Positions 29,384 to 48,517 of a stretch of 64,000 bases of DNA are shown here, one piece after another. Origin of the DNA: a bacterium (lineage in GTDB: Bacteria; Bacillota; Clostridia; Christensenellales; DTU072); the NCBI GenBank assembly GCA_963644945.1, contig CAVIQK010000001.1, forward strand, positions 3,402-67,401, given 5' to 3'. How positions within the stretch are numbered: position 1 is the stretch's first letter; each line of letters begins with the position of its first letter. The notes beneath the pieces were generated by a model. It did no database searches. It worked only from the letters and a program-made list of their open reading frames with translations, and was not told the origin of the DNA. Position numbers and translations under genes: made by a program.

Positions 29384-29397
29384 TAAGGAGAACAAAA

Positions 29398-29640
29398 ATG
29401 GTAAAATTGACGGTTTGTATAGGAAGTTCTTGCCACATAAAAGGTTCAAGACAAGTGGTAGAACAATTACAAAATTTAGTGGCAGAAAAAGGTTTGAAGG
29501 ACAAAGTCGAACTTACCGGTACGTTTTGCATGGGCACTTGTCAACAAGGCGTGTGCGTAACAGTTGATGACCAATTGTTTTCGGTAAGCCCCGAAACGAC
29601 CAAAGAGTTTTTTGAAACCAACGTAATGTCCAGAATATAA
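29398..29640 (+). CDS. Thioredoxin-like [2Fe-2S] ferredoxin (NuoE/HydC-type mini-domain), copy 1
   Basis: 80 aa. Cys pattern VCIGSSCH...FCMGTC (C-x4-C...C-x3-C). Confidence 0.65.
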   Translation: MVKLTVCIGSSCHIKGSRQVVEQLQNLVAEKGLKDKVELTGTFCMGTCQQGVCVTVDDQLFSVSPETTKEFFETNVMSRI

Positions 29641-29642
29641 CA

Positions 29643-29900
29643 ATGGTTGTCATTAAAGTTTGCGTGGGGAGTTCTTGTCACATAAAAGGCGCCCCCGGAG
29701 TAGTAGATCTTCTTGAAAAATACATTGACGACAACGGCATAAGAGACGAAGTCGAATTGACCGGAAGTTTTTGTGCGGGAAAATGCAACAGAAACGGTGT
29801 CACTATCACTGTTGACGACGATGTATATACAGGAATAACCAAGGAATCTTTTGGAGAATTCTTCAAAGAAAATATATTGAAAAGAGTAAAAGAATCATGA
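29643..29900 (+). CDS. Thioredoxin-like [2Fe-2S] ferredoxin, copy 2 (tandem paralog)
   Basis: 85 aa. VCVGSSCH...FCAGKC. Clear paralogy to copy 1 (VC.GSSCHIKG, VELTG.FC, the T(V/I)DD stretch). Confidence 0.65.
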   Translation: MVVIKVCVGSSCHIKGAPGVVDLLEKYIDDNGIRDEVELTGSFCAGKCNRNGVTITVDDDVYTGITKESFGEFFKENILKRVKES

Positions 29901-30841: not shown

Positions 30842-30850
30842 AGGTTAGTT

Positions 30851-32524: not shown

Positions 32525-33689
32525 CCTTTGTGTCGAGATAGGCTACAAGAGTATAAATCACGACGGAGAACAACTCTGCGGAGATCACGTTGACGTCATC
32601 GAGCAAAACGACGATTCTACTATCGTAGTTTTGGCGGACGGACTGGGATCGGGAGTCAAGGCAAGCATATTGTCAACACTCACGTCCAAGATTATTTCCA
32701 CAATGTTGTCGGAAGGCTTGTCCCTAGAAGACTGTGTCGAAACAATAGCCGCCACCTTACCTATTTGTTCGGTAAGAGGCGTAGCATATTCGACCTTCAC
32801 TATCATAAACATTGTCAATTGCGATACGGCAGAAATAATGCAATACGACAATCCGCAAGTTATAATAATAAGGAACGGCATCAATTACGAATATCCTCGC
32901 ACCGAGATGAATATCGGTGGCAAGAAAATATATAAGTCTGTGGTCAAACTCGAAGAAGGCGATTTGTTTATTGCCATGAGTGACGGTTGTACACATGCGG
33001 GACTTGGAATAAAATACAATTTCGGTTGGAAAAGAGAAGACATTATAGCGTTTATGTCCTCTATTGCGCATGTAGGATACAATGCCAAGACATATTCGAC
33101 AATACTTGTTGACGAGTGCAACAGACTATATGGCGAAAAACCCGGTGACGATGCGACGGCTTGCGTTATCAAGGTTAGGGAAAAAGTCCCCATGAATATT
33201 TTATTCGGACCTCCCTCCAATCGTGACGACGTCAACAGAATGATGGCACTCTTTTTCGGGAAAGAAGGCAAACACATCGTATGCGGAGGCACAACGTCCT
33301 CGCTTGCATCAAAATATTTGGGAAAACCGCTAAAAACCAGTCTAAAATATTACGGTGGAGACGTTCCTCCTACCGCAGAACTCGAAGGAGTAGATTTGGT
33401 AACAGAAGGAGTTATAACGGTCAACAAGGTTTTGGAATATGCAAAAGATGCCCTTGCCGACAACAAATTGTACGAAAAATGGGGATTCGGCAGAGACGGT
33501 GCTTGTATGATTTCCAGACTGTTGTTCGAAGAAGCCACCGACATCAACTTCTTCGTAGGGAGGGCAATAAACCCCGCTCACCAAAACCCCAATCTTCCCA
33601 TCAACTTCAACATTAAGATGAATCTTGTGGAAGAATTGTCCAAATGCCTAAGACAAATGGGCAAAAGAATAAAAGTAATTTATTTTTAA
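32517..33689 (+). CDS. SpoIIE/PP2C-family protein phosphatase with C-terminal domain of unknown function
   Basis: 390 aa. CGDHVDV...VLADGLGSGVKASILS...AMSDG. 8-nt overlap with the HydS-like gene. Confidence 0.7.
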   Translation: MNDLCVEIGYKSINHDGEQLCGDHVDVIEQNDDSTIVVLADGLGSGVKASILSTLTSKIISTMLSEGLSLEDCVETIAATLPICSVRGVAYSTFTIINIVNCDTAEIMQYDNPQVIIIRNGINYEYPRTEMNIGGKKIYKSVVKLEEGDLFIAMSDGCTHAGLGIKYNFGWKREDIIAFMSSIAHVGYNAKTYSTILVDECNRLYGEKPGDDATACVIKVREKVPMNILFGPPSNRDDVNRMMALFFGKEGKHIVCGGTTSSLASKYLGKPLKTSLKYYGGDVPPTAELEGVDLVTEGVITVNKVLEYAKDALADNKLYEKWGFGRDGACMISRLLFEEATDINFFVGRAINPAHQNPNLPINFNIKMNLVEELSKCLRQMGKRIKVIYF

Positions 33690-33712
33690 TAAAAATAAAA
33701 AGAGGCTAGTGT

Positions 33713-35140
33713 ATGAGAAAATTCGACACCAAAGTTCAAGACCTTAAATACAGAGTATTGAGAGAAGTTTGTAGAGAAGCATGGGCCGGAAGACTTCAAG
33801 AAACCGCCATCGACATCCCGAAAATCATTGTCCCGGGCAAAGTCCCGACAATGAGATGTTGTGTGTATAAAGAAAGAGCAATTCTTACCGAACGTGTCAA
33901 GATTGCTATGGGCGGAAGAAGAGAAAACCCCAACGTGATCGAAGTCATCGATATCGCATGTGACGAATGCCCCGTCGGCGGATACGAAGTGACTGCCGGT
34001 TGTAGAGGCTGTCTTGCGCACCATTGCGAAGATGCGTGTAAATTCGGTGCGATAGAGTTTGACCACAACCACGTTGCTCATATAGACAAAACCAAATGTA
34101 AAGAATGCGGAGCATGTTCGAGAGTTTGTCCGTACAGTGCAATTCGCAATTATAAACGCCCTTGTGTCACCGCATGCAAGGTAAAAGCCATATCGATAGG
34201 CGACGAGCAACAAGCCGTCATTGACAACGAAAAATGTATTGCTTGCGGAGCCTGTGTCTATCAATGTCCGTTTGGCGCAATAGCCGACAAATCTTATGTT
34301 CTCAATGCAATAGACCTTATCAAAAAGAGCAAAGGAAACACCAAATTCAAGGTGTTTGCCGTAGTCGCTCCTTCGATTTCAAGTCAGTTTACTTATGCAA
34401 AACTCGGTCAAGTAATAAGAGGTCTTAAAGAACTCGGATTTTATACCGTAATAGAAGCGGCGCTAGGGGCCGACATGGTCGCTCAAAAGGAGTCGGAAGA
34501 ACTTGCCGAAAAAGGTTTCTTGACCAGTTCTTGCTGTCCCGCATTTGTCAATTATATCGAGAAAAACTATCCCGATTTGTTGCCTTACGTGTCTAGCAAT
34601 ATGTCCCCTATGGCGACAATCGCAAAATATATAAAAGAAAACGAAGCACCCGCAAAAGTCGTCTTTATAGGACCGTGTACCGCCAAGAAAATGGAAATCA
34701 AAAAAGATTCCGTCCGTCAGTATGTGGATGTAGCCCTTACGTTTGAGGAGTTGCAAGCCCTATTTGACAGCAAGGATATAGACATAACCACGCTTGGCGA
34801 AGACGTTCTTGACAATGCATCGTATTTTGGCAGAATATTCGCCCGCTCCGGCGGACTTTCGGATGCCGTAGCCGAAGGACTAAAAGAACAAAATCTAGAT
34901 TTTGAATTAAAACCCTTCGCTTGTGACGGCATAGAGGCATGCAAACTTGCCCTCATGCAAAAGTCCAAAGGAAGACTGGATGCCAACTTTATAGAAGGCA
35001 TGGCGTGTGTAGGCGGATGTATCGGCGGAGCCGGTTGCCTTACTCATGGCGAAAAGAACAAAGCCGAAGTGGACAAATACGGAAAATTGGCTTATGAAAA
35101 AACCATTTTGGACGCTGTTTCTGTATTGAAAACAAAATAA
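33713..35140 (+). CDS. [FeFe]-hydrogenase catalytic subunit (group B-like)
   Basis: 475 aa. Several CxxCxxCxxxC ferredoxin motifs. H-cluster motifs TSSCCPAF, IGPCTAKKME, IEGMACVGGCIGGAGC. Confidence 0.8.
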   Translation: MRKFDTKVQDLKYRVLREVCREAWAGRLQETAIDIPKIIVPGKVPTMRCCVYKERAILTERVKIAMGGRRENPNVIEVIDIACDECPVGGYEVTAGCRGCLAHHCEDACKFGAIEFDHNHVAHIDKTKCKECGACSRVCPYSAIRNYKRPCVTACKVKAISIGDEQQAVIDNEKCIACGACVYQCPFGAIADKSYVLNAIDLIKKSKGNTKFKVFAVVAPSISSQFTYAKLGQVIRGLKELGFYTVIEAALGADMVAQKESEELAEKGFLTSSCCPAFVNYIEKNYPDLLPYVSSNMSPMATIAKYIKENEAPAKVVFIGPCTAKKMEIKKDSVRQYVDVALTFEELQALFDSKDIDITTLGEDVLDNASYFGRIFARSGGLSDAVAEGLKEQNLDFELKPFACDGIEACKLALMQKSKGRLDANFIEGMACVGGCIGGAGCLTHGEKNKAEVDKYGKLAYEKTILDAVSVLKTK

Positions 35141-35154
35141 AAGTATTATATAAT
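35126..35154 (+). promoter_or_regulatory. Candidate internal promoter ahead of fumC
   Basis: TTGAAA (35126-35131), 17-nt spacer, TATAAT (35149-35154). It straddles the hydrogenase stop codon. Confidence 0.4.
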
Positions 35155-35188: not shown

Positions 35189-36568
35189 ATGGAATATCGT
35201 ATTGAAAAAGACACAATGGGCGAAGTTAGAGTCCCCGCAGACAAATATTGGGCAGCACAGACCGAAAGAAGTTTTGAAAACTTCAAAATCGGTATCGAAA
35301 AAATGCCTAGAGAAATCACTCACGCATTCGGCATTTTGAAAAAAGCCGCCGCTATTGCCAACTACAATCTCGGAAAACTCCCGAAAGAAAAAATGGATGC
35401 AATAGTTGCCGCTTGTGACGAAGTCATTTCCGGAAAACTCAACGATCATTTTCCTTTGGTCGTATGGCAAACAGGTAGCGGTACACAATCCAACATGAAT
35501 GCCAACGAAGTTATTGCCAATAGAGGCAACGAGATTGCCGGAGCAAAACTTCTCCACCCCAACGACGATATCAACAAGAGCCAAAGCTCCAACGATACAT
35601 TCCCTACGGCAATGCATATAGCCGCCGTTATCGCAATAGAAGATCATCTATTCCCTTCGATAGATAAACTTGTCGAAACGTTCAAAAGACTCGAACAAGA
35701 AAACGAAGGCATCGTCAAGAGTGGCAGAACCCACCTACAAGATGCTGTTCCGATTGCATTTTCACAAGAAATAAGCGGTTGGAGAGCAATGCTCGAAAAG
35801 ACCAAAGAACAATTAAAACTTTCTTTGTCGGGACTTAAAGAACTTGCCCTTGGCGGTACTGCTGTAGGAACAGGACTCAATGCTCCTATGGGATTTGACG
35901 AAGAAGTCGCCAAACAAGTAAGCGAAATTACAGGCAAAGATTTTGTCACTTCCGACAACAAATATCATGCACTTACCTCAAAAGATGCTCTCGTGTTCGC
36001 ACACGGTGCAATGAAAGCCCTTGCTTGCAACCTTATGAAAATAGCCAACGACGTAAGATGGCTTGCATCCGGTCCTCGTGACGGTCTCGGAGAAATCTTT
36101 ATTCCCGAAAACGAACCCGGTTCTTCCATCATGCCCGGCAAGGTCAACCCGACTCAATGCGAATCAATGACAATGGTAGCCGTTCAAGTTATGGCCAACG
36201 ACGTAGCCGTTTCTTTGGGCGCATCACAAGGCAATTTCGAACTCAACGTGTTTATGCCGGTAATCATCTACAATTTCTTGCAATCGGCAAAACTTCTCGC
36301 CGAAGGCATCGTGTCCTTCAACGATCACTGTGCGGTAGGCATCAAAGCCAACAAAGAAAAGATGGCACACAACCTCCACAATTCGTTGATGTTGGTCACC
36401 GCTCTCAATCCTTACATCGGATACGAAAATGCGGCAAAGACAGCCAAAAAAGCACATAAAGAAAATATTTCTCTAAAAGAAGCCTGTGTATCTCTCGGAT
36501 TCCTGACTGCCGAGAAGTTCGACGAAGTATTCAAACCCGAAGAGATGGCATATCCTAAAAAGAAGTAA
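35189..36568 (+). CDS. fumC: Class II fumarate hydratase
   Basis: 459 aa. [25 protein letters not shown] and the signature [11 protein letters not shown]. Confidence 0.9.
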
Positions 36569-36594
36569 TTTTTGTTTAAGTAAAGGAAAAGAAT

Positions 36595-37374
36595 ATGAAA
36601 ATTTGTTATTATCCGGGCTGTACCCTAAAAACCAAGGCAAAAGATCTCGACAAATGGGCGAGACTTTCTGCTCAAAAGTTAGGGGTAGAGATGGAAGAAA
36701 TTGAAAATTGGCAATGTTGCGGTGCCGTATATCCTACGGCACGTGACGAAATAGCCACGAAACTTTCCGCAATTAGAGCCCTTGACTATGCAAAACACAA
36801 CGGAGGCAAACTTTTGACACTCTGTTCTGCTTGTCACAACGTGATCAAACGTGTCAACGACGACATGCAAAACGATGACAACATCAAGATGAAAGCCAAC
36901 AATTATTTGGGACTCGAAGAAGCCTACCTTGGCGAAACCCAAGTAATTCACTATCTCGAAATGCTAAGAGACGTAGTAGGATTTGACAATCTAAAAAAGG
37001 CAGTAGTTAAGCCCATCGACAGAAAAATCGGTGCATTTTACGGTTGTTTATTGCTTCGTCCCGGCAAAGTCATGGCTTTTGACAATCCCGAAAATCCCCA
37101 AATTATGGAAGATTTTATCACCGCCATCGGTGGCACTCCCGTAAAATATGCTATGCGCAACGAGTGTTGCGGTGCTTACGTTGCATTGAGAACACAATCT
37201 CTTGCCGAAAAACGTAGCAACATAATTTTGGAAGATGCCAAAGCACACGGAGCAGAAGAAGTCGTTACGGCATGTCCTCTCTGCTTATACAATCTCAAAA
37301 ACAACGGGAACGTAGATATCAAAGTAAGTTACTTTACCGAACTTCTCGCAGAAGCGTTGGGGGTGAAAGAATAA
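36595..37374 (+). CDS. hdrB: Heterodisulfide reductase subunit B-like protein (two CCG domains)
   Basis: 259 aa. YYPGC...WQCCGA...LCSACHN and FYGC...NECCGA...ACPLCLYN. Confidence 0.8.
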   Translation: MKICYYPGCTLKTKAKDLDKWARLSAQKLGVEMEEIENWQCCGAVYPTARDEIATKLSAIRALDYAKHNGGKLLTLCSACHNVIKRVNDDMQNDDNIKMKANNYLGLEEAYLGETQVIHYLEMLRDVVGFDNLKKAVVKPIDRKIGAFYGCLLLRPGKVMAFDNPENPQIMEDFITAIGGTPVKYAMRNECCGAYVALRTQSLAEKRSNIILEDAKAHGAEEVVTACPLCLYNLKNNGNVDIKVSYFTELLAEALGVKE

Positions 37375-37760
37375 TGAGTAATCAAGAATATTTAGAAAAC
37401 ATTGTTCTTATAGCCGGCACAGACGTCAAAAAGTGCATGAAATGTGGCAAATGTTCCGGAAGATGCCCCGCATTTTCCGAAATGGACATAAAACCCCATC
37501 AATTCGTTTCGTATCTTGCCGAAAAGAAAATAGACAAATTGCTAAACAGCAAAGCAATTTGGAACTGCTTGTCTTGTATGGCTTGCGTGGAGAGATGCCC
37601 TAGAGGTGTCGCACCGCAAAGCGTAATCGAAGCAGTTAGAGATACAGTTGCCAGAATGCAAAACGGAAATGGACTAAAAGCCGAAGAAATTCCGTCAAAA
37701 GTGGACGAATTTATTCCGCAACAGCTCATCGTAAGCGCATTTAGAAAATATAACAAGTAA
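37374..37760 (+). CDS. hdrC: Heterodisulfide reductase subunit C-like (2x[4Fe-4S])
   Basis: ORF trimmed to MSNQEY, with TAATG overlap onto hdrB. CMKCGKCSGRCP and CLSCMACVERCP. 128 aa. Confidence 0.75.
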   Translation: MSNQEYLENIVLIAGTDVKKCMKCGKCSGRCPAFSEMDIKPHQFVSYLAEKKIDKLLNSKAIWNCLSCMACVERCPRGVAPQSVIEAVRDTVARMQNGNGLKAEEIPSKVDEFIPQQLIVSAFRKYNK

Positions 37761-37774
37761 AGAGAGAAAATAAT

Positions 37775-39766
37775 ATGCAAAAAATAGGTGTATTTATTTG
37801 TTGGTGCGGTACCAATATAGCCGCAACGGTCGATGTGGAAAGAGTCGCAAGGGAAATTAAAAAAGAGCCCGGAGTCGTCTATTCCGCAGATTATCAATAT
37901 ATGTGTTCGGAAAACGGACAACAATTGTTGAAAAAAGCCGTCAAAGAATATGGTCTTACAGGTATTGTAATAGGCTCTTGTTCTCCGAGAATGCACGAAG
38001 CGACATTTAGAAAAGCCGCCGAATCTGCGGGACTCAATCCCTTCATGGTAGAAATTGCCAACTTGAGAGAACAATGTTCTTGGATACATAAGGATAGAGA
38101 AGAAGCCACCGAAAAAGCCCTTGTTCTTGTCCGTACGGCAATCGCAAAAGTTAGACTCAATGCTCCTCTTACCGAAGGCGAAAGCCCCGTTACCAAGAGA
38201 GCCTTAGTAATCGGTGGCGGTATTGCGGGCATACAAGCAGCCCTAGATATAGCCGAAGCGGGATATCCCGTTGACATTGTCGAAAAGAATGCAACAATCG
38301 GCGGAAGAATGGCACAACTTGACAAGACTTTCCCGACTCTTGACTGCTCGGCATGTATCCTTACCCCTAAAATGGTCGATTGTGCACAAAGCGACAAGAT
38401 CGACATTTTGTCATATTCCGAAGTAGAAGAAGTCAAAGGATTTGTAGGAAAATTCTCTGTAAAAATCAAGAGAAAAGCCCGTTATGTTGACGAAACCAAA
38501 TGTACCGGTTGTAAAATCTGTATGGAAAAATGTCCGTCCAGAAAAGGACTCAACGAGTTCAACCAAAACTTAAACAACCGTACGGCAATTTATATTCCGT
38601 TTGCGCAAGCAATACCTAATGTAGCGGTTATCGATCCTACGCAGTGCATAAAACTTCGTACCGGAAAGTGCGGAATTTGTCAAAAATTCTGCGGAGCGGG
38701 TGCAATAAATTACGAAATGAAAGATGAATTTATCGAGAGAGAATACGGCGCAATAGTCGTTGCGACAGGATTTAGACCGATTGCTCTCGACAATTTCAAC
38801 GAGTTCGGCTACAACGACAATAAAGACGTCATTACGTCACTAGAACTCGAAAGACTTATGAATGCCGCAGGTCCTACCAACGGAGTTCTTCTCCGCCCGT
38901 CCGACGGCACGCACCCCAAAGTAATTACGTTTATACAATGTGTCGGATCAAGAGACGTATCCGGATGCGGAAAGCCCTATTGCTCCAAAATATGCTGTAT
39001 GTACACCGCAAAACATGCAATGCTTATTAGAGAAAAATACCCCGACACCGAAGTGCATGTCTTCTATATAGACATACGTACCCCCGGCAAGAACTACGAC
39101 GAATTTTATCGTCGTGCCGTCGAACAATACGGTGTTGACTATATAAAAGGAATGGTCGGCAAAGTGTATGAAGAGAACGGAAAACTCATGGTACAAGGAT
39201 CCAATTTGCTTGAAAACGAGCAAATCACAATTCCTTCCGATCTAGTAGTTTTGGCAACGGCAATAGAACCGGAGCCGTCCGTAAGAAAGATAGCCACCTT
39301 ACTTACCGCAAGCATAGACACCAACAACTTCCTCAACGAGTCCCACCCGAAACTTCGTCCGGTAGAAAGTCCTACCGCAGGCGTGTTCCTTGCAGGTGTT
39401 TGCCAAGGACCTAAAGATATTCCGGAAACAGTTTCACAAGCATCGGCTTGTGCCGCTAAGGTTTTGGGACTTTTGGCAAAAGACAAATTGAAGACCAACC
39501 CTTGTGTTGCAAGTCCCAACGAGTCAATGTGCAACGGTTGTTCACAATGTGCCAATGTTTGTGCATACGGCGCAATTACATATATAGATAAAGAATTCCG
39601 TCTAGGCGGAGGAAAAACCGAAACAAGAAGAGTCGCATCCGTCAACCATGCAGTATGTCAAGGTTGTGGAGCATGTACCGTAGCATGCCCGTCGGGCGCT
39701 ATGGATTTGTCGGGATTCTCGTCTAAACAGATTATGTCGGAGGTCGAAGCAATATGCAAGAGATAG
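37775..39766 (+). CDS. hdrA: Heterodisulfide reductase subunit A-like flavoprotein (FAD plus multiple [4Fe-4S])
   Basis: 663 aa. KIGVFICWCGTNIA, VIGGGIAGIQAALD, CTGCKICMEKCP, CGICQKFC, CNGCSQCANVC, CQGCGACTVACP. Confidence 0.85.
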   Translation: MQKIGVFICWCGTNIAATVDVERVAREIKKEPGVVYSADYQYMCSENGQQLLKKAVKEYGLTGIVIGSCSPRMHEATFRKAAESAGLNPFMVEIANLREQCSWIHKDREEATEKALVLVRTAIAKVRLNAPLTEGESPVTKRALVIGGGIAGIQAALDIAEAGYPVDIVEKNATIGGRMAQLDKTFPTLDCSACILTPKMVDCAQSDKIDILSYSEVEEVKGFVGKFSVKIKRKARYVDETKCTGCKICMEKCPSRKGLNEFNQNLNNRTAIYIPFAQAIPNVAVIDPTQCIKLRTGKCGICQKFCGAGAINYEMKDEFIEREYGAIVVATGFRPIALDNFNEFGYNDNKDVITSLELERLMNAAGPTNGVLLRPSDGTHPKVITFIQCVGSRDVSGCGKPYCSKICCMYTAKHAMLIREKYPDTEVHVFYIDIRTPGKNYDEFYRRAVEQYGVDYIKGMVGKVYEENGKLMVQGSNLLENEQITIPSDLVVLATAIEPEPSVRKIATLLTASIDTNNFLNESHPKLRPVESPTAGVFLAGVCQGPKDIPETVSQASACAAKVLGLLAKDKLKTNPCVASPNESMCNGCSQCANVCAYGAITYIDKEFRLGGGKTETRRVASVNHAVCQGCGACTVACPSGAMDLSGFSSKQIMSEVEAICKR

Positions 39767-40206
39767 AGAAAAACGAAGGTAATTATACACCTAATATAGT
39801 TGCATTTTGTTGCAACTGGTGTTCGTATGCGGGAGCCGACCTTGCCGGATCGTCAAGACTTTCTTATCCTGCCAACGTAAAAATTGTAAGAGTACCTTGC
39901 TCATGTAGAGTCAACCCCATGTTTATACTAAAAGCCTTCCAAAGAGGCGCAGACGGTGTAATTTTGTGTGGATGCCACCCCGGAGATTGCCACTATGTCA
40001 CCGGCAACTACTACACGAGAAGAAGAATGACCTTGCTTTTCAGTTTTCTAGATTACCTAGGAATTGAAAAAGAACGTACCAGAGTAGAATGGGTTTCCGC
40101 CGCCGAAGGTGCGAAATTCTCGGCAGTTATGAATGATTTTGTCAAACAAGTTACCGAACTTGGCGAAAACAAGAGACTCCAAGATTTGAGAGTTAAGGAG
40201 AAGTAA
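39754..40206 (+). CDS. mvhD: MvhD/FlxD-like hydrogenase iron-sulfur (delta) subunit
   Basis: 150 aa. IVAFCCNWCSYAGADLAG...VPCSCRV...CGCHPGDCHY. 13-nt overlap with hdrA. Confidence 0.8.
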   Translation: MQEIEKNEGNYTPNIVAFCCNWCSYAGADLAGSSRLSYPANVKIVRVPCSCRVNPMFILKAFQRGADGVILCGCHPGDCHYVTGNYYTRRRMTLLFSFLDYLGIEKERTRVEWVSAAEGAKFSAVMNDFVKQVTELGENKRLQDLRVKEK

Positions 40207-40207
40207 A

Positions 40208-41194
40208 ATGAACGAACTCGAAAAATTGATGGTAAAAAGAGCAACAGAACTTCTCAATTCGGGCGAAGTCAAGAGAGTCGTAGGTTGGACGAAAGGCGAA
40301 TTTATTCACGATCCGTCACCTGCATCATTCGAAACCGAAGAGGACTTAAAGAATTTCGTGTACAACGATTTTTGTGGTCCCAACCTTTCCAAATATCTCA
40401 TTGATATATCGAAAAAAGAAGGGAAAACCGCAGTATTTTTGAAGCCTTGCGACACATACAGTTTCAACGAACTTTTGAAAGAGCATAGAGTAAAACGTGA
40501 AAATATTTTGGTAATAGGTATAGAGTGTAGAGGAAAACTCGACAACTATAAACTTGAAAAGAAAGGCATCACCGGAATTACCGAAGAAGAATACAACGAC
40601 AACAAAGTCACTCTCAAAACTCTTTACGGCGAAGAATTTTGCCTCGAAAAGGGCGAAGTTTTGCTTGATAAGTGCCTTGAATGCAAAGGCAAAACCCACG
40701 TTGTCGCAGACGAAAAAATTATTATCCACGAAGTGGTAGAAGAAAACAACGATAGATTTTCTAAGGTAAGAGAGTTAGAAAAAATGACTCCTACCGAAAG
40801 ATACGAATTTTGGCAATCGCAACTTTCCAAATGCATTCGTTGCAATGCTTGTAGAAATGTTTGCCCCGCATGTTCGTGCGTGAAATGCGTGTTCGACAAT
40901 CCTCAATCGGGAGTCGCCGCCAAAGCCAACGACGTAAGTTTTGAAGAGCAACTCTACCATATAATAAGAGCCTTCCACGTATCCGGCAGATGTACGGATT
41001 GCGGAGAGTGTTCGAGAGTATGCCCCGAGAGAATACCGCTTCATCTTCTCAACAGAAAATTTATCAAAGACATCAACACTATCTATGGCGAATTCCAAGC
41101 CGGTGAAGTGGCAGAAGGAAGTTATCCTTTGACCTCATATACCGAAAAAGATATTGAGCCAAACAACGTGTTTAGTGCAACGGAGGGCAAATAA
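40208..41194 (+). CDS. Iron-sulfur protein, FlxB/C-like (4Fe-4S dicluster)
   Basis: 328 aa. CIRCNACRNVCPAC and CTDCGECSRVCPE. 1-nt gap after mvhD. Confidence 0.6.
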   Translation: MNELEKLMVKRATELLNSGEVKRVVGWTKGEFIHDPSPASFETEEDLKNFVYNDFCGPNLSKYLIDISKKEGKTAVFLKPCDTYSFNELLKEHRVKRENILVIGIECRGKLDNYKLEKKGITGITEEEYNDNKVTLKTLYGEEFCLEKGEVLLDKCLECKGKTHVVADEKIIIHEVVEENNDRFSKVRELEKMTPTERYEFWQSQLSKCIRCNACRNVCPACSCVKCVFDNPQSGVAAKANDVSFEEQLYHIIRAFHVSGRCTDCGECSRVCPERIPLHLLNRKFIKDINTIYGEFQAGEVAEGSYPLTSYTEKDIEPNNVFSATEGK

Positions 41195-42214
41195 ATGATT
41201 AAAATTAAAAGAGAAAATCTCACCAACTTCTACAAAGCCCTCAAAGAAAAAATGCCCCTATACATACCGCAAAATATTGCCGGTATGGTGAATTATGCCC
41301 CGTTCGAAGAGAATTCCGTAGTCGATATCGACACATTAAAAACGGTAAAAAGTCCCAAAGACGTTTTCTTCCCCCAAAGCGAAAACATGATGAAATTCCG
41401 CTTGGAAGGTAAAACCATATCAATAGAGGACATAAGAAAAGAAAGAGAACCCTTTTTGGTGTTCGGTGTACGTGCATGCGATTTGAAAGCCTTTGAAGTT
41501 TTGGATCACGTCTTTTTACAAGAGCCGGTTGACACATATTATAAGGAAAGAAGAGAAAAAGGTGTCATCTTTACTTTGGCATGCGGAAAACCCGAAGAAA
41601 GTTGTTTCTGCAACGTATTTGGTATCGATGCATCCGCTCCGCAAGGAGATGCGACATGCTATCTTGACGACAATTATCTCTATGTTCGTCCCAATACCGA
41701 CAAAGGCAAAGCCGTACTTTCAGGAATAGACGGAGAAACTTGCGACGAAAAGGAAGTATCTCCTATCGTAGAAAAGACCAAAGCGACAATCGAAAAACTT
41801 CCGTTTTCGCATCTTGATCTATCTTATTTCAAACCCGAAAATCTCAACGAGATATTCGAACTTCCCGATTGGCAACAGTTGTCACAAGCATGTATCGGTT
41901 GCGGAACATGTACTTTTGTATGCCCGACATGTCAATGTTTTGATATAAGAGACTTCAAAACACAAGACGGCGTAATAAGATTCCGCTGTTGGGATTCTTG
42001 CATGTATTCGGACTTCACGCAGATGGCGGCAGCCAATCCTCGTACAACTCAAATGCAAAGATTCCGTCAAAGATTTATGCATAAACTCGTATATTTCCCG
42101 TCGCAATACGGCATGTATTCGTGTGTAGGTTGCGGAAGATGCGTCAACAAATGTCCGCAACATCTCAATATTGTAAAAGTTATCAAAAAAATAGGGGGAA
42201 AGAAAAATGGTTAA
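41195..42214 (+). CDS. Iron-sulfur protein, AsrA / sulfhydrogenase-beta-like (FlxB/C-like)
   Basis: 339 aa. CIGCGTCTFVCPTCQC and CVGCGRCVNKCP. No gap after the previous gene. Confidence 0.6.
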   Translation: MIKIKRENLTNFYKALKEKMPLYIPQNIAGMVNYAPFEENSVVDIDTLKTVKSPKDVFFPQSENMMKFRLEGKTISIEDIRKEREPFLVFGVRACDLKAFEVLDHVFLQEPVDTYYKERREKGVIFTLACGKPEESCFCNVFGIDASAPQGDATCYLDDNYLYVRPNTDKGKAVLSGIDGETCDEKEVSPIVEKTKATIEKLPFSHLDLSYFKPENLNEIFELPDWQQLSQACIGCGTCTFVCPTCQCFDIRDFKTQDGVIRFRCWDSCMYSDFTQMAAANPRTTQMQRFRQRFMHKLVYFPSQYGMYSCVGCGRCVNKCPQHLNIVKVIKKIGGKKNG

Positions 42215-43034
42215 TGAGAACCTTATCCCTAATATCGGAGTAATAACCGATGTAAGAAAAGACACCGCAGACGTCAAAACATTTAGAGTGGTGGGACTTG
42301 ACGGCAAGAAGTTGTTCGAACACATGCCCGGCCAATGTGCGATGGTTTCCATCCCCGGAGTAGGCGAGTGTATGTTCTCGATTACGTCGTCGCCTACCAA
42401 CAAAGAATTTATGGAATTTTCCATCAAAAAATGCGGTTGTGTGACAGAAATAATCCATTCTTTGGAAGAAGGACAACACATTACGGTTAGAGGACCGTAT
42501 GGCAAGAATTTCCCCGTAGAAGGAGATTTCAAAGGAAAAGATTTGTTGTTCATCGCAGGTGGAATCGGTCTTGCACCTCTTCGTAGCGTCATAAATTATG
42601 TTCGCCATTATAGAGAGAACTACGGCAAAGTAGTAGTCGTGTACGGTGCAAGAAGCAAAGACGACCTTGTCGATATAGAAGAAATCCAAAAAGAGTGGAT
42701 GAACGAAAAGAATTTTGAAGTTTATTTGACGATAGACCGTCCGCAAGAAGGATGGGACGGACACGTAGGATTTGTCCCTGCATACGTCAAAGAACTAGGA
42801 CTTGATCCCACAATGACGGCAGTACTTTGCGGACCGCCGATAATGATCAAATTTACTTTGGCAGGTCTTCTAGAACTCGGATTCAAGAAAGAAAGAGTCT
42901 ATACCACTTTGGAACTTCGCATGAAGTGCGGTATAGGAAAGTGCGGAAGATGCAATGTAGGCGACAAGTTCGTATGTAAAGACGGCCCCGTTTTTAGAAT
43001 GGACCAATTAGACGAATTACCCGATGAATATTGA
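42207..43034 (+). CDS. FNR-fold FAD/NAD(P)H oxidoreductase subunit with C-terminal [2Fe-2S] (FlxA / AsrB / PyrK-like)
   Basis: 275 aa. MFSITSSP FAD motif, LLFIAGGIGLAPLRS NAD motif, CGIGKCGRC...C cluster motif. Confidence 0.75.
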   Translation: MVNENLIPNIGVITDVRKDTADVKTFRVVGLDGKKLFEHMPGQCAMVSIPGVGECMFSITSSPTNKEFMEFSIKKCGCVTEIIHSLEEGQHITVRGPYGKNFPVEGDFKGKDLLFIAGGIGLAPLRSVINYVRHYRENYGKVVVVYGARSKDDLVDIEEIQKEWMNEKNFEVYLTIDRPQEGWDGHVGFVPAYVKELGLDPTMTAVLCGPPIMIKFTLAGLLELGFKKERVYTTLELRMKCGIGKCGRCNVGDKFVCKDGPVFRMDQLDELPDEY

Positions 43035-43054
43035 TAAGTAGTAGGAGTATAAAA

Positions 43055-43729
43055 ATGGAAAAGAAAGTCAACGTTTATTTCTTTGGAAAACATTATGAGG
43101 TTCCGGAAAGCCTTACCATCATGAAGGCAATGGAATATGCCGGATACCAATTGATAAGAGGATGCGGTTGCCGTAACGGTTTTTGCGGAGCGTGTGCAAC
43201 TTTTTATCGTATAAAAGGTCAACAAGCATTAAGAACATGTCTTGCTTGCCAACAACAAGTAGAAGAAGGAATGTATGTAGCAACACTACCTTCGTTCCCG
43301 CTTGTAAAACAAGTCTATGACATCAACAAAATCAAACCGACCGAGCAAATTATGATGCAATTATATCCCGAAATATATAGTTGTATAGGTTGCAATGCTT
43401 GTACCAAGGCTTGCCCTCAAGGACTCAATGTTATGCAATACATCGCTTATGCACAACGTGGTGAATACGAAAAATGTGCAGAAGCAAGTTTTGACTGCGT
43501 AATGTGCGGACTTTGTTCGTCAAGATGCCCTGCGGGTATTTCTCATCCGCAAGTCGCAGAACTCGCAAGAAGATTGTACGGCAAATATATTGCCCCCGAA
43601 TGTAAACACCTTGAAAAGAGAGTCGCAGAAATAGAAAACGGCGAACTTGAAAAGATGATGGAAGATATTATGGGAAAACCGATATCCGAAATGAAAGAAC
43701 TTTACAACACAAGACAAATCGAAAAATAG
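43055..43729 (+). CDS. Succinate dehydrogenase/fumarate reductase iron-sulfur subunit-like protein
   Basis: Trimmed to MEKKVNVYFFG, with AGGAG SD. CRNGFCGAC...C [2Fe-2S], then CIGCNACTKACP and CVMCGLCSSRCP. 224 aa. Confidence 0.7.
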   Translation: MEKKVNVYFFGKHYEVPESLTIMKAMEYAGYQLIRGCGCRNGFCGACATFYRIKGQQALRTCLACQQQVEEGMYVATLPSFPLVKQVYDINKIKPTEQIMMQLYPEIYSCIGCNACTKACPQGLNVMQYIAYAQRGEYEKCAEASFDCVMCGLCSSRCPAGISHPQVAELARRLYGKYIAPECKHLEKRVAEIENGELEKMMEDIMGKPISEMKELYNTRQIEK

Positions 43730-43738
43730 GAGGGCAGT

Positions 43739-45340
43739 ATGTATAATTATACCGAAGAACAATTAGTTTCGATGAAAAAAGTCGAGGAAACAAGACAAGA
43801 AAGAGTCAACAACTTATATCCTCGTATGACTGCCGACGAAAAAGATGCAGTATTAAAAGAAAATCACCCCGACTATATAGATAGCGCATACGAAAGTCTA
43901 AAAGTCGGTCCCAACAAAGGCGAAAAAGTCCTTCACGAACTTGCCGACCTCTTGCAAGGCAAGTCAAGAGTTTCGGGCCTTGACATAGATTTAGAGCATC
44001 CCGCATACGACGTTGACGTTTTGGTTATCGGCGGTGGCGGAGCAGGTGCATCTACGGCAATTACCGCTCACAAAAACGGTGCCAATGTCATGATGGTCAC
44101 AAAACTCAGAATAGGCGATGCCAACACAATGATGGCAGAAGGCGGTATCCAAGCGGCAGACAAAGAGAACGATTCCCCCGCAATTCACTATCTTGATGCG
44201 TTCGGAGGCGGACACTTTGCCGCAAAACCCGAACTTCTCAAAAAACTCGTCTATGAAGCACCCGATGCAATCAAATGGCTATCCGATCTCGGAGTTATGT
44301 TCGATAAAGATAAAGACGGCAACATGGTCACCACACACGGTGGCGGAACGTCCAGAAAGAGAATGCACGCATGCAAGGACTATTCCGGCGCAGAAATAAT
44401 GCGTACACTAAGAGACGAAGTTTTCAACAGAGAAATCCCCGTAGTTGACTTTACGTCCGCAATCGAAATCATAAAAGACGACAAGGGCAATGCTGCGGGA
44501 GCAGTGCTTCTCAACATGGAAACAGGCAAAATAGAAGTAGCCAAAGCCAAGACCGTCGTCATCGCAACAGGCGGAGCAGGAAGACTTCATTATCAAGGAT
44601 TCCCGACATCCAACCACTACGGAGCAACGGCCGACGGACTCGTTCTTGCTTATAGAGCAGGCGCAAAACTTCTTTATGCAGACACTTTGCAATACCATCC
44701 TACCGGTGTTGCCGAACCTACACAAATATTCGGAGCCCTCGTCACCGAAAAGGTCCGTTCTCTCGGAGCCCAACTCGTCAACAAAGAAGGCAAAGCCTTC
44801 GTGTATTCACTTGAAACAAGAGACGTCACAGCATCTTCTATCATAAGAGAATGCAAACAAAGAAAGAATTCCGTAAAAACCACCGACGGCGAAGGCGTAT
44901 GGCTCGACACTCCTATGATTGATATGATCGGAGGCGAAGGCACTATCGAAAAACGTATCCCTGCAATGTACCGCATGTTCGGGAAATACGGCATCGACAT
45001 CAGAAAAGAGCCTATTCTCGTATATCCTACACTTCACTACCAAAACGGCGGTATTGACATCAGTGCCAACGGTGAAACGACGGCAGTCAAAAACTTGTTC
45101 GTAGCAGGCGAAGCAGTCGGAGGCATACACGGCAGAAACAGACTTATGGGCAACAGCCTTCTCGACATCATCGTATTTGGCAGAAATGCCGGTCATTTTG
45201 CGGCGGAAAGAGCAAAAGAAACCGTTGTCGGCAAACTTTCTCTCGATCACGTAAAATCATTTGAAAAAGAATTGAAAGACGCAGGACTCAATCCTACCAA
45301 ACTTTCACCTCAACTTCTTCCCGATTACAGAAGAAAATAA
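43739..45340 (+). CDS. Fumarate reductase/succinate dehydrogenase flavoprotein-like subunit (non-covalent FAD predicted)
   Basis: 533 aa. VIGGGGAGAS, LQYHPTG, SLETRD, LHYQNGGI, GRNRLMGNSLLD. Asn replaces the flavinylation His. Confidence 0.7.
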   Translation: MYNYTEEQLVSMKKVEETRQERVNNLYPRMTADEKDAVLKENHPDYIDSAYESLKVGPNKGEKVLHELADLLQGKSRVSGLDIDLEHPAYDVDVLVIGGGGAGASTAITAHKNGANVMMVTKLRIGDANTMMAEGGIQAADKENDSPAIHYLDAFGGGHFAAKPELLKKLVYEAPDAIKWLSDLGVMFDKDKDGNMVTTHGGGTSRKRMHACKDYSGAEIMRTLRDEVFNREIPVVDFTSAIEIIKDDKGNAAGAVLLNMETGKIEVAKAKTVVIATGGAGRLHYQGFPTSNHYGATADGLVLAYRAGAKLLYADTLQYHPTGVAEPTQIFGALVTEKVRSLGAQLVNKEGKAFVYSLETRDVTASSIIRECKQRKNSVKTTDGEGVWLDTPMIDMIGGEGTIEKRIPAMYRMFGKYGIDIRKEPILVYPTLHYQNGGIDISANGETTAVKNLFVAGEAVGGIHGRNRLMGNSLLDIIVFGRNAGHFAAERAKETVVGKLSLDHVKSFEKELKDAGLNPTKLSPQLLPDYRRK

Positions 45341-45351
45341 TAGGAGACAAT

Positions 45352-46821
45352 ATGGAAGAATATAAAGAAAACGGTGTCGAAGAAGAATCTATCGCAACCG
45401 AGGATGAAGTAGTGTTAGAAGACGGCGAAGCCTCTGTTCAAAAGGCAAACGCCCCCAAAACCCCTAAAAAGTGGGTAAAATGGGTGGTGCTTGGCATTGT
45501 AGCGGCACTTGTCATAGGTGTTGTTGCATGGTGCATATACAGCGCAACACAAGGTAAAGGCATCGACGGAGTGCTTGGTATTTCTACGGTTACGGCACTT
45601 CTATTCGGTGTGTTCCTTGTAGCCGCCCTCGGATACCTTCTCGGTAGCGTCACGATAAAAGGTGTCAACCTCGGCACTGCCGGAGTATTTTTGGTAGCCA
45701 TCGCATTTGGATGTATTTGCACGATAAAAGGACTAAAAGACGTACCGGTACTCGGTAAGTTCTATATAGAAGGTTCCTCGTCGGCACTATATAAATATTA
45801 CGGAAGCATCGTCCAAAACGTAGGACTTGTATTGTTCGTTGCATCTGTCGGGTTTATCGCAGGCCCCAACTTCTTCAAGAACTTGAAGAAAAATGCAAAG
45901 TCTTATGTAGTACTCGGAGCAATCATCATCGCAACGGGCGCCCTTCTTTCCGTCCTCTTTACACTGGCACTGAAAGGAACTCTTGGCGACGTAGCCAAAG
46001 AATTCTCGGTCGGAATTTTGTCGGGTGCATTGACAACTACCCCGGGATATTCGGCAGCGCTAGAAGCAAGTAGCACAGACGGAGCCATGATAACTCTCGG
46101 ACATGCTATTGCATATCCGTTCGGAGTAGTAGGTGTTGTTTTGTTCGTACAATTAGTACCTAAATTTATGAAAGCCGACATGGAAAAAGAAAGAGCCCTT
46201 CTAAAAATAGACGGTGCCGAACTCAAAGAGAAGAAAGAAGGTTTGTTTGTTTGCGATCCCTTCGGACTCATGCCTTTCGGCCTTGCAGTCGTAGCAGGAC
46301 TCATCTTGGGAGCCATCAAAATACCGCTTACCGGTGAAGGTTACAACGGAACATGTTTCTCGCTAGGAACAACCGGCGGTGTGCTTATTATGTGCCTAAT
46401 CTTCGGACACTTCGGCCACATGGGGAAACTTTCCCTTGAAATTCCCGAAAAAACCGCCAAGGTTTTCCGTGAATTCGGTCTTATGATGTTCTTGATAGGA
46501 GCAGGTGTTGCCGGCGGCGCACAACTCGTCAACCAAATCAACAATTACGGTGGTCTTGTAATCTTGTGGGGATTCTTGGGCGGTGCCATTATGACACTCG
46601 TTCCTATGATAGTAGGTTTCTTCTTCGCAAAATACATTTTGAAGATAAGCCTTCTCAACAACCTTGGCTCGATCACCGGCGGAATGACATCGACTCCCGC
46701 CCTCGGTACCCTTATTTCTACCGCAGGGACAGACGACGTCGCATCTGCCTATGCATCAACTTATCCGATTGCGCTCGTTTTGATTGTACTTGCGTCGCAA
46801 TTTATAGTAACATTAATGTAG
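45352..46821 (+). CDS. AAE (aspartate:alanine exchanger / YidE-YbjL-SucE) family transporter, short form
   Basis: 489 aa. Two homologous membrane halves (GVNLGTAGVFLVAIAFG and FSLGTTGGVLIMCLIFG) joined by about 30 aa. No RCK_C domains. Acidic N-terminal tail of about 40 aa. Confidence 0.6.
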   Translation: MEEYKENGVEEESIATEDEVVLEDGEASVQKANAPKTPKKWVKWVVLGIVAALVIGVVAWCIYSATQGKGIDGVLGISTVTALLFGVFLVAALGYLLGSVTIKGVNLGTAGVFLVAIAFGCICTIKGLKDVPVLGKFYIEGSSSALYKYYGSIVQNVGLVLFVASVGFIAGPNFFKNLKKNAKSYVVLGAIIIATGALLSVLFTLALKGTLGDVAKEFSVGILSGALTTTPGYSAALEASSTDGAMITLGHAIAYPFGVVGVVLFVQLVPKFMKADMEKERALLKIDGAELKEKKEGLFVCDPFGLMPFGLAVVAGLILGAIKIPLTGEGYNGTCFSLGTTGGVLIMCLIFGHFGHMGKLSLEIPEKTAKVFREFGLMMFLIGAGVAGGAQLVNQINNYGGLVILWGFLGGAIMTLVPMIVGFFFAKYILKISLLNNLGSITGGMTSTPALGTLISTAGTDDVASAYASTYPIALVLIVLASQFIVTLM

Positions 46822-46860: not shown

Positions 46861-48465
46861 ATGACAAAAATCGATTTAACGAAATATGGCATTAAAAACG
46901 TCACCGAAGTAGTTTACAACCCGTCATACGAAATGCTTTTCGAAGAAGAAACCAGAAAAGATCTTACCGGTTATGAAAAGGGACAAGTTAGCGAACTCGG
47001 TGCAGTCAATGTTATGACAGGTATTTATACCGGACGTTCTCCTAAGGATAAATTTATCGTCATGGACGAAAACTCCAAAGACACCGTTTGGTGGACTTCG
47101 GACGAATTCAAAAACGACAACCATCCCGCAAGCAAAGAAACATGGCAAGCAGTCAAAGACATTGCAGTCAAAGAACTCAGTGGCAAGAGATTGTTCGTCG
47201 TAGATGCATTTTGCGGTGCCAACAAAGACACTCGTATGGCAGTTAGATTCATCGTCGAAGTCGCATGGCAAGCACACTTCATCAAGAATATGTTTATCGT
47301 GCCTACACAAGAAGAACTCGAAAACTTCGAACCCGACTTCGTTGTTTACAATGCATCGAAAGCCAAAGTCGAAAATTACAAAGAACTCGGTCTCAATTCC
47401 GAAACAGCCGTTGTCTTCAATATCACATCGAGAGAACAAGTTATAATCAACACTTGGTACGGTGGAGAAATGAAGAAAGGTATGTTCTCAATGATGAACT
47501 ACTATTTGCCCCTAAAAGGCATTGCATCAATGCACTGCTCGGCAAATACCGATATGGACGGAAAGAACACCGCAATATTCTTCGGTCTTTCCGGAACAGG
47601 CAAAACCACCCTTTCCACAGATCCTAAACGTCTCCTAATCGGCGACGACGAACACGGCTGGGACGACAACGGAGTATTCAACTTTGAAGGTGGCTGCTAC
47701 GCAAAAGTTATCAACCTCGACAAAGATTCCGAACCCGATATTTACAACGCAATCAGAAGAAATGCCCTTCTCGAAAACGTAACTCTTGACGAAAACGGCA
47801 AAATCGATTTTGCAGACAAGAGCGTTACGGAAAACACTCGTGTTTCCTATCCTATCCAACACATCGAAAAGATTGTCAGACCTGTTTCCTCCGCTCCCGC
47901 AGCGAAAAACGTCATATTCCTTTCTGCCGATGCATTCGGAGTGCTTCCTCCTGTCTCAATCTTGACTCCTGAACAAACTCAATACTACTTCCTCTCCGGA
48001 TTTACCGCAAAACTTGCAGGAACCGAAAGAGGTATAACCGAGCCTACTCCTACATTCTCCGCATGTTTCGGACAAGCCTTCCTAGAACTTCATCCTACAA
48101 AATATGCAGAAGAACTCGTCAAGAAAATGCAAAAGAGCGGAGCCAAAGCATACTTGGTCAACACCGGTTGGAACGGCACCGGAAAACGTATCTCCATCAA
48201 AGATACAAGAGGAATTATCGATGCAATTTTGAGTGGCGACATCAACAATGCCCCCACCAAGAAAATCCCCTATTTTGACTTTGAAGTACCTACAAAACTC
48301 AATGGCGTAGATTCAGGCATCCTCGATCCTAGAGACACCTACAAAGATGCAAAAGATTGGGAAGTCAAGGCTCTTGACCTTGCAGGAAGATTTACAAAGA
48401 ACTTTGCAAAATATGCAACCAACGAAGCAGGCAAAGCACTTGTAAAAGCAGGTCCTAAAGCATAA
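46861..48465 (+). CDS. pckA: Phosphoenolpyruvate carboxykinase (ATP)
   Basis: 534 aa. [29 protein letters not shown], typical C-terminus. Confidence 0.9.
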
Positions 48466-48490
48466 TAAAAACCAAAACGGTAAAAAGAAA

Positions 48491-48517
48491 AGGAGTTCTC
48501 AGAACTCCTTTTTTTTG
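48491..48517. terminator. Bidirectional intrinsic terminator (pckA / convergent dipeptidase gene)
   Basis: AGGAGTTC-TCA-GAACTCCT with an upstream A-run and a downstream T8. Confidence 0.75.

Follow-up and report, generated by a model that had tools for sequence, protein, structure and literature searches.

The window analysed here, a stretch of 64,000 nt of contig CAVIQK010000001.1 (GCA_963644945.1, forward-strand positions 3,402-67,401), raises the question of what is encoded by nine co-directional genes that lie on its + strand at 36595-45340 in the order hdrB-hdrC-hdrA-mvhD/flxD-flxC-flxB-flxA-frdB-frdA. All coordinates are given as window positions and all features are on the + strand unless stated otherwise. 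Judged from sequence, and with a probability of about 60%, the nine genes would encode one soluble, multi-subunit, NADH-dependent and quinone-free fumarate reductase that bifurcates electrons to ferredoxin. The idea of an Hdr/Flx-linked fumarate reductase is already published, and the operon in the window is a further member with a much broader distribution; new in this analysis are how widely it occurs across gut Clostridia, cultured Christensenella tenuis among them, and the other modules with which the FrdBA pair is combined.

Gene starts were set using the gene calls on an identical public contig (CAVJAZ010000001.1, metagenome-assembled genome (MAG) GCA_963647875.1) together with the gap table. 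The HdrC start was corrected to give 37374-37760 (128 aa, ATG, 1-nt overlap with the hdrB stop), the longer open reading frame from 37272 being dropped, and the FrdB start was corrected to give 43055-43729 (224 aa, ATG). With these starts the intergenic gaps across the block are -1, 14, -13, 1, 0, -8, 20 and 9 nt, in agreement with a first-pass annotation of this DNA, made from the letters, in which the nine genes were described as packed with gaps of -13 to +20 nt; the 26 nt that it gave between the end of fumC and hdrB were returned by the gene calls as well. The same annotation had noted that the block is without a membrane anchor of the SdhC/D or FrdC/D type, and this held, since no SdhC/D gene is present and a hydrophobic-segment scan found no transmembrane-like segment in any of the nine proteins.

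Conservation of the block was assessed in a genome scan with the FrdA-like protein as query and one genome per species. Counts rest on the closest 80 loci (70-87% identity), and the 595 scan matches were not used as a measure of prevalence because other proteins of the SdhA/NadB type fit the search patterns as well. Synteny was scored by tblastn of all window proteins, with the full-block test limited to loci with at least 7.4 kb upstream (n = 57). The nine genes from hdrB to frdA were found in identical order and on the same strand in 57/57 testable species genomes, with reading frames overlapping or near-touching in every one, and on shorter contigs each gene with room to fit was there (frdB, for example, in 75/75). 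The arrangement, collinear in all 57 of these other species genomes, is far beyond chance, and the adjacency of frdBA to hdr-flx that had been seen in the first pass is shared by all testable relatives.

Carriers among the closest 80 loci are MAGs of Christensenellaceae, Ca. Scatosoma, Ruminococcus, Oscillospiraceae, Acutalibacteraceae and Lachnospiraceae, with human, ruminant, chicken and mouse guts as sources, and the cultured carriers are C. tenuis NSJ-35 and Ohessyouella blattaphilus PAL227. The FrdA-like protein is represented in more than 120 database clusters at at least 83% identity. Two loci with outlying labels, L029 (Bifidobacteriaceae) and L048 (Bacteroides uniformis), hold the same Clostridia-type operon at 74-83% identity; mis-binning of the contigs is the likeliest explanation, ahead of gene transfer.

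Domains were assigned by Pfam and NCBIfam profile searches of the window proteins, in which every domain named by the first-pass annotation was recovered, and its descriptions of HdrB (two complete CCG domains), HdrC (two CxxCxxCxxxCP motifs), a full-length HdrA, an MvhD/FlxD-like protein, an FNR-fold FAD/NAD(P)H subunit ending in a [2Fe-2S] site and a pair of SdhB/FrdB-like and SdhA/FrdA-like proteins were borne out. HdrB (36595-37374) has two Pfam CCG domains (64.9 bits), aligns over residues 1-247 with the solved HdrB 8rvv_B (E 3e-35) and has the full complement of ten Cys that ligate the two noncubane [4Fe-4S] clusters, the motifs being kept in 60/60 orthologues; the NCBIfam HdrB and SdhE models tie at 137 bits, below their cutoffs of 345 and 500. 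The 2x[4Fe-4S] protein HdrC (37374-37760) was matched by Fer4_8 and by TIGR03290 (64 bits, curated NCBIfam cutoff of 160 not reached), and its two motifs were found in 60/60 orthologues. HdrA (37775-39766, 663 aa), the candidate bifurcating flavin adenine dinucleotide (FAD) subunit, matches the solved bifurcating Methanothermococcus HdrA 5odc_A end to end (672 bits, residues 3-660 to 5-649). Its FAD domain and its N-terminal, inserted and C-terminal iron-sulfur (FeS) domains, the last two of the ferredoxin type, are all present, the CxGxR...CSxxCC motif was found in 60/60 orthologues, and the HdrA2 model scored 794 bits against an NCBIfam cutoff of 1100, which was not reached. The MvhD/FlxD-like [2Fe-2S] adaptor (39754-40206) was identified by Pfam FlpD (1.1e-55, 187 bits) and also picks up the NCBIfam HdrA2 model at positions 643-774.

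Next in order are two FeS proteins, FlxC (40208-41194; Fer4_8 and related domains at 205-276) and FlxB (41195-42214; Fer4_22 110, HydB 186 and AsrA 164 bits), both of which had been described as AsrA/sulfhydrogenase-beta-like in the first pass. This stands for FlxB, which is AsrA/HydB-like across its full length, but not for FlxC, whose likeness to FlxB is limited to the C-terminal FeS domain (23% over 99 aa). FlxA (42207-43034), the candidate site of NADH entry, combines FAD_binding_6, NAD_binding_1 and a C-terminal [2Fe-2S] domain (DHODB_Fe-S_bind), with a Cx4Cx2Cx7C motif in 75/75 orthologues. The cofactor motifs of HdrA, HdrB, HdrC, MvhD and FlxA were whole in all orthologues checked.

The FrdB-like subunit (43055-43729) consists of an SdhB/TfrB-type [2Fe-2S] domain (Fer2_4, 25.9 bits; TfrB model positions 13-94) and a dicluster domain, and is divergent from SdhB (methylmenaquinol:fumarate reductase (MFR) SdhB model, 27 bits against a cutoff of 600). 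In 79/79 orthologues the [2Fe-2S] motif of the SdhB type is joined by two complete CxxCxxCxxxC motifs with their eight Cys; given two complete four-Cys motifs, 2x[4Fe-4S] and no [3Fe-4S] would be expected. Neither FrdB nor FrdA has a CCG domain by Pfam or NCBIfam. A natural single-chain FrdB-FrdA fusion of 727 aa (protein P0122) also occurs.

The FrdA-like flavoprotein (43739-45340, 533 aa) is the candidate fumarate-reducing subunit and was matched by FAD_binding_2 at 238 bits. Curated models cover its FAD and capping domains only (model ~5-425 of 546-600); no Pfam match to Succ_DH_flav_C was obtained, and the protein has a clade-specific N-terminal extension of ~90 residues. In an alignment that takes in relatives at 38-87% identity, no substitution is seen at H320, R361, H433, R468, E337 or R340, and the fumarate-reductase catalytic set (His/Arg/His/Arg with the Thr-Glu..Arg proton path, E337/R340) is present in 82/82 orthologues from genomes. 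The position of the covalent-FAD His is taken by Asn129, which is invariant in the same alignment, and among the orthologues a D/S-A/S-N-T motif was found in 78/82 and the covalent-link His in 0/82. The FAD is predicted to be non-covalent. Asn instead of the covalent-FAD His accords with the enzyme being a reductase and not an oxidiser of succinate. In the AlphaFold2 model of FrdA (pLDDT 89, pTM 0.90) the nearest folds by Foldseek were 1kf6_A followed by 7d6v_A (TMq ~0.70), and the nearest structures in the PDB are E. coli quinol:fumarate reductase FrdA, M. smegmatis Sdh1 and the Shewanella flavocytochrome c3 fumarate reductase.

That the FrdA-like protein acts on another substrate, either L-aspartate as NadB does or another enoate, with the downstream transporter as an aspartate:alanine exchanger, is highly improbable. 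NadB models score just ~60 bits under TfrA, the best NCBIfam model (TIGR00551, 273 bits against a cutoff of 452.75, not reached; TfrA, 335 bits against 718, model positions 5-425 of 546; MFR SdhA, 225 bits against 1100), and the transporter family is named for aspartate:alanine exchange. All members of the FrdA clade peak on the TfrA model, however, 45-80 bits above the NadB and SdhA models, without reaching a curated cutoff. In a neighbour-joining tree with references labelled by NCBIfam (100 replicates), the FrdA-like clade and a 410-aa truncated sister group were monophyletic in 100/100, NadB was separate and monophyletic in 100/100, and a joint split of NadB with the FrdA-like clade was seen in 9/100; the FrdA-like protein is therefore not grouped with NadB, one of the groupings that the first pass had named as counting against its reading. 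P0157, from the 410-aa relatives, lies on a contig of only 1.3 kb, which gives no gene context. Fumarate reductases and succinate dehydrogenases are moreover the top structural matches, the operon is flanked by fumC, a malate dehydrogenase-like gene and pckA, and the corresponding operon of Pseudoclostridium thermosuccinogenes is treated by its authors as the fumarate reductase of that succinate producer (PMC7282089).

Two regions of FrdA outside the curated models were also noted. Residues 1-89 (43739-44005) are confidently modelled and hold near-invariant HP(D/N)Y and GxNxG(E/D)K motifs, and the C-terminal tail (45290-45340) has a conserved SPxLLPxY in place of the usual C-terminal domain.

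From these genes we infer a single complex with NADH as donor and bifurcation to ferredoxin, in which electrons would pass in the following order. NADH would be oxidised at FlxA (FAD, [2Fe-2S]), and FlxB/FlxC and the MvhD-like adaptor would carry electrons to the FAD of HdrA, where the electron pair would be split. The downhill branch would run through HdrC and the HdrB clusters to FrdB (2Fe-2S and two 4Fe-4S) and the non-covalent FAD of FrdA, and so to fumarate, and the uphill branch through the HdrA ferredoxin domains to ferredoxin, for a predicted net reaction of 2 NADH + fumarate + 2 Fd(ox) -> 2 NAD+ + succinate + 2 Fd(red). Reduced ferredoxin might then give H2 through the adjacent group B [FeFe]-hydrogenase or serve other energy conservation, and the operon would supply the final step of a route PckA -> MDH-like -> FumC -> fumarate reductase -> AAEx exporter. 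The reaction of NADH with fumarate yields -58.1 +/- 4.1 kJ/mol (PMC13147460, Table 1), which is enough for ferredoxin reduction. The fuller claim is of a true bifurcating NADH:fumarate/ferredoxin oxidoreductase in which the HdrB noncubane clusters would relay electrons into an SdhB/SdhA module and would not act as a disulfide-reducing site. Fumarate reduction would then be energy-conserving in quinone-free gut Clostridia (Christensenellaceae, Oscillospiraceae, Lachnospiraceae), and in some lineages its output would be adjusted to H2 pressure by the neighbouring HydS-like sensor, kinase/phosphatase and group B hydrogenase. This fuller claim is put at a little under even odds.

The oxidative direction, in which oxidation of succinate to fumarate together with ferredoxin would drive NAD+ reduction, was considered and rejected, as by our own calculation a mean donor potential of ~-210 mV cannot reduce NAD+ at -320 mV; it is also disfavoured because the FAD is not covalent.

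Several points weigh against a bifurcating NADH:fumarate reductase. The NCBIfam equivalog cutoffs were reached by 0/9 block proteins. The disulfide-reducing site of HdrB is complete in 60/60 orthologues and would also fit a thiol/disulfide intermediate rather than a direct relay. Since frdB adjoins flxA and not hdrB, gene order does not give the wiring, and in a single-chain AlphaFold2 prediction of FrdB and FrdA joined and aligned with P0122 the FrdB half was modelled at pLDDT 30-40 (overall pTM 0.68), too low to bear on the interface between the two. Relatives of the FrdBA pair are encoded alone or with a NuoF-like module, so that the pair can work without Hdr and without bifurcation. The literature searches turned up no purification, assay or structure for a fumarate reductase tied to Hdr/Flx, nor for a Flx-Hdr complex of any kind.

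How HdrB and FrdBA may be joined is indicated by methanogen thiol:fumarate reductase. The TfrB model (488 positions) is tiled collinearly by FrdB at 13-94, an HdrC-type dicluster domain at 123-224 and HdrB at 262-487, and by domain-fusion logic this sets a precedent for a CCG protein directly feeding an SdhB/SdhA pair. Another reading is a thiol shuttle, in which Flx-HdrABC reduces a disulfide (a small molecule or a DsrC-like protein) with NADH and ferredoxin and a thiol:fumarate reductase re-oxidises the thiols, like TfrAB; in its favour, TfrA is the best model for FrdA, and the heterodisulfide-reducing site of HdrB, with its ten Cys, is whole in 60/60 orthologues. Such a shuttle is nevertheless distinctly unlikely, because FrdB and FrdA are without a CCG domain and hence without a known thiol-oxidising site, HdrB being the sole CCG protein, and because no DsrC/TusE-like or thiol-cofactor gene was found in or beside the operon within the window. 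Coenzymes M and B are, to our knowledge, not expected in Clostridia.

The FrdBA pair is a portable terminal module, found alone, with a NuoF-like subunit or in a cluster linked to 2-oxoacid:ferredoxin oxidoreductase (OFOR) and Hdr. Locus L084 (9366-12891, 47% identity) reads frdB-frdA-nuoF-like, and its contig has genes for c-type cytochromes and a UbiA-family protein as well; locus L086 (811-9771, 56% identity, P0121) reads OFOR-hdrA-mvhD-hdrC-hdrB-frdB-frdA, with no flx genes on its 10-kb contig; and in the distant relatives L087 and L088 frdA and frdB occur without hdr/flx genes. Transfer from NADH to fumarate without Hdr thus seems to be present in the FrdBA family, given that a NuoF-like NADH/FMN subunit is the pair's sole partner in L084, and this lends weight to a linear soluble NADH:fumarate reductase, that is, the same complex with all electrons going to fumarate and the HdrA flavin and ferredoxin domains acting as a wire only. 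A soluble five-subunit NADH-dependent fumarate reductase has also been characterised in Hydrogenobacter thermophilus (Miura et al. 2008, as cited in PMC13147460). A linear enzyme is nonetheless unlikely: seven extra redox subunits kept in 57/57 genomes are hard to explain as a wire when in L084 the pair has one NuoF-like subunit and no other companion, HdrA is full length with both ferredoxin domains and at 672 bits to a bifurcating enzyme, and ~58 kJ/mol would go to waste.

The loci in which FrdBA stands apart from hdr/flx (L087, L088) are also consistent with separate, co-regulated enzymes, with FrdBA using ferredoxin or another donor and Flx-Hdr serving as an NADH/ferredoxin module with a different high-potential acceptor, and the FrdB dicluster domain does resemble RnfC/ferredoxin-type domains. 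Order and spacing, however, are invariant in 57/57 genomes, the operon encodes no other candidate high-potential acceptor, and the L086 variant likewise links Hdr straight to FrdBA, all of which makes separate enzymes very unlikely.

The closest published system is the 'succinate operon' of P. thermosuccinogenes, described in 2019/2020. Its members are a fumarate hydratase gene, seven genes for Flx-Hdr, two for a fumarate reductase and one for a putative succinate transporter; they were transcribed and regulated together and rose ~4-fold under CO2 limitation, and high H2 was reported to abolish succinate formation in this organism (PMC7282089). Coupling of fumarate reduction through Flx-Hdr to ferredoxin reduction is the hypothesis published for it (Koendjbiharie & van Kranenburg 2019 preprint, as cited in PMC7282089). 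The window genes at 35189-46821 fit that description of a co-directional cluster of fumarase, seven Hdr/Flx genes, two fumarate reductase genes and a transporter, with 1 + 7 + 2 + 1 genes, the same order class and the same hypothesis, the likeness being to the published description of that operon (CDQ83_RS03315-03365). The window differs in its host, an uncultured Christensenellaceae-like gut bacterium and not a thermophile, in its phosphoenolpyruvate (PEP) carboxykinase, ATP-dependent here and GTP-dependent there, and in what lies before the operon, namely a hydS-PP2C-group B hydrogenase set and a malate dehydrogenase-like gene.

In tubeworm symbionts, as described in 2019 and 2024, korABCD and tfrAB are interspersed with flxABCD-hdrABC and co-expressed (PMC6315080, PMC11636981; for Endoriftia, PMC11636981), and this related cluster has been reviewed together with the soluble NADH-dependent fumarate reductase of H. 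thermophilus (PMC13147460). There, too, Hdr/Flx genes go together with an SdhAB-like pair (annotated tfrAB), for which feeding by a bifurcating complex has been proposed, and the arrangement of L086 resembles this cluster. The symbiont cluster, however, belongs to autotrophic CO2 fixation by the reductive tricarboxylic acid cycle in Gammaproteobacteria and includes a 2-oxoglutarate:ferredoxin oxidoreductase, whereas the window cluster belongs to a fermentative succinate branch in Clostridia, and gene order differs. The first-pass annotation was aware of no biochemically characterised Hdr/Flx-coupled fumarate reductase; the idea itself proved to be published (PMC7282089, PMC6315080, PMC11636981, PMC13147460), and no biochemically characterised example was found in the literature. 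A characterised Hdr-type bifurcating enzyme with an organic-acid acceptor, and any mention of the nine-gene operon in Christensenellaceae, were likewise not found in the literature searched.

The FlxABCD-HdrABC of Desulfovibrio vulgaris (Ramos et al. 2015, as cited in PMC7282089) comprises the same seven protein types, all of which are present in 57/57 loci. The order there is flxABCD-hdrABC and in the window hdrBCA-flxDCBA, and the acceptor proposed there, according to the same citation, is DsrC, whereas an SdhBA-type module is attached in the window and no DsrC gene is nearby. HdrA, HdrB, HdrC and MvhD have full-length homologues in methanogen HdrABC-MvhAGD (5odc, 8rvu) and keep every cluster ligand, although HdrB is ~30-40 residues shorter at its C-terminus; the donor module in the window would be Flx (NADH) and not a [NiFe]-hydrogenase, and the likely acceptor fumarate through FrdBA and not CoM-S-S-CoB. 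As regards methanogen TfrAB, TfrA is the best curated model for FrdA and the TfrB model is tiled by FrdB and HdrB, but TfrB is one fused polypeptide with two CCG domains, which in the window are on a separate HdrB, and compared with TfrA the window FrdA lacks the C-terminal ~120 residues and has the clade-specific N-terminal extension (335 bits, cutoff 718). In the type E succinate:quinone reductases and MFR (SdhABE), as in the window, a CCG protein partners SdhAB and a second [4Fe-4S] replaces the [3Fe-4S]; these enzymes are membrane-associated and quinone-linked, whereas the window proteins have no membrane segment (SdhE 137/500, SdhA 225/1100). The H. thermophilus enzyme shares a multi-subunit build and an SdhA-like catalytic subunit; according to Miura et al. 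as cited in PMC13147460, it is non-bifurcating, with dispersed genes and another subunit set. No other enzyme of this sort with biochemical characterisation was found cited.

The operon offers fumarate as a testable high-potential acceptor of a bacterial Flx-Hdr outside the sulfate reducers. If the bifurcating reading is true, it would account for the way in which abundant quinone-free gut and rumen Clostridia make succinate and yet recover part of the ~58 kJ/mol as reduced ferredoxin, for use as H2 or to build an ion gradient. Both H2 and succinate are central to cross-feeding in the gut, succinate is also an industrial target, and the cultured carriers C. tenuis NSJ-35 and O. blattaphilus PAL227 are usable for experiments.

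The block lies within a co-directional run of 22 genes (28023-48465), with rex first and pckA last. Upstream of hdrB is fumC (35189-36568; TIGR00979, 741.8 against 664.75 bits), a class II fumarate hydratase (malate -> fumarate), which was found upstream of the block in 45/55 related loci. A promoter-like site before fumC (35126-35154, TTGAAA-17-TATAAT, 11/12) is a consensus match only. Further upstream, a gene of the lactate/malate dehydrogenase (LDH/MDH) family (29897-30841) probably encodes malate dehydrogenase (oxaloacetate -> malate); the L-LDH model scored 344.8 against 339 bits and the MDH subfamily model 269.9 against a cutoff of 283, and the protein has Arg at the Q102/R102 specificity position (IARKPDQSR), which separates malate from lactate dehydrogenases (Q102R switch). 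In ~47 loci a homologue immediately precedes fumC or, if that gene is absent, hdrB. Downstream of frdA are an AAEx (AspT/YidE/YbjL) family transporter (45352-46821; Pfam Asp-Al_Ex 5.7e-57, 12 transmembrane-like segments), a candidate succinate exporter whose family is found within 2.5 kb downstream in 43/56 loci, and pckA (46861-48465; TIGR00224, 820.8 against 590; NF006819, 980.8 against 745), for an ATP-dependent PEP carboxykinase (PEP + CO2 -> oxaloacetate + ATP). Only L016 and the lineage of the window itself have pckA next to the operon; it was not found in the examined flanks of the other 78 loci. With the MDH-like gene and fumC upstream and the AAEx transporter and pckA downstream, a reductive branch from PEP to succinate is indicated. 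After pckA, between convergent genes, a hairpin terminator-like site (48488-48512, no strand assigned; 11-pair stem with A-run and T-run flanks) is likewise a consensus match only.

The first pass had proposed that a neighbouring [FeFe]-hydrogenase might re-oxidise the ferredoxin. A catalytic enzyme of group B is indeed present at 33713-35140 (monomeric; TIGR04105, 558.7 against a cutoff of 450), with the H-cluster motifs TSSCCP, GPCTAKKME and EGMACVGGCIGG; two hydrogenase-like genes lie upstream, however, and the other is sensor-like by domain layout only. Group B [FeFe]-hydrogenases are reported as the main drivers of gut H2 production (PMC12578642), which makes re-oxidation of ferredoxin by the adjacent candidate plausible. 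A sensory HydS role for 33713-35140, suspected from the adjacent PP2C gene, was ruled out by the score of the group B catalytic model. The other gene (30851-32524) encodes a HydS-like, putatively H2-sensing [FeFe]-hydrogenase with Fer4, Fe_hyd_lg_C (171 bits), a PF04060 FeS domain and a weak PAS domain at residues 403-449 (E 3.5e-4), from which a sensory role would follow. Between the two lies a PP2C/SpoIIE-type phosphatase (32517-33689; Pfam SpoIIE 1.9e-14), a putative partner of which is an APH/RIO-like small kinase (28634-29383; Pfam APH 4.6e-14, RIO1 1.2e-7). The set begins with rex, for a redox-sensing repressor (28023-28631; NF003994, 241 bits against a cutoff of 130), and includes two small NuoE-like [2Fe-2S] thioredoxin-fold proteins (29398-29640 and 29643-29900; PF01257 on record, weak NuoE matches).

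The hydS-PP2C-hydrogenase set is also present in L016 and L051, there on the downstream side of the operon, and parts of it in L007, L029, L060, L071 and L073. Its position before fumC, with rex, the kinase and the NuoE-like genes (28023-35140), and its recurrence near the operon suggest H2- and NADH-responsive control of the succinate branch, in which the HydS-like hydrogenase and the kinase/phosphatase pair may couple expression to H2. A search of the window for Rex boxes (TTGTTAANNNNTTAACAA, up to 3 mismatches) gave 12 matches against 9.6 expected, none of them well placed, and inspection by eye of two candidate promoter regions for a Rex box found nothing. Upstream of rex, the region 22058-27908 encodes a 963-aa GGDEF+EAL protein, a transporter and a LysR-type regulator (26979-27908). 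The CitMHS/ArsB-family transporter at 24995-26326, on the opposite strand, might import a di- or tricarboxylate.

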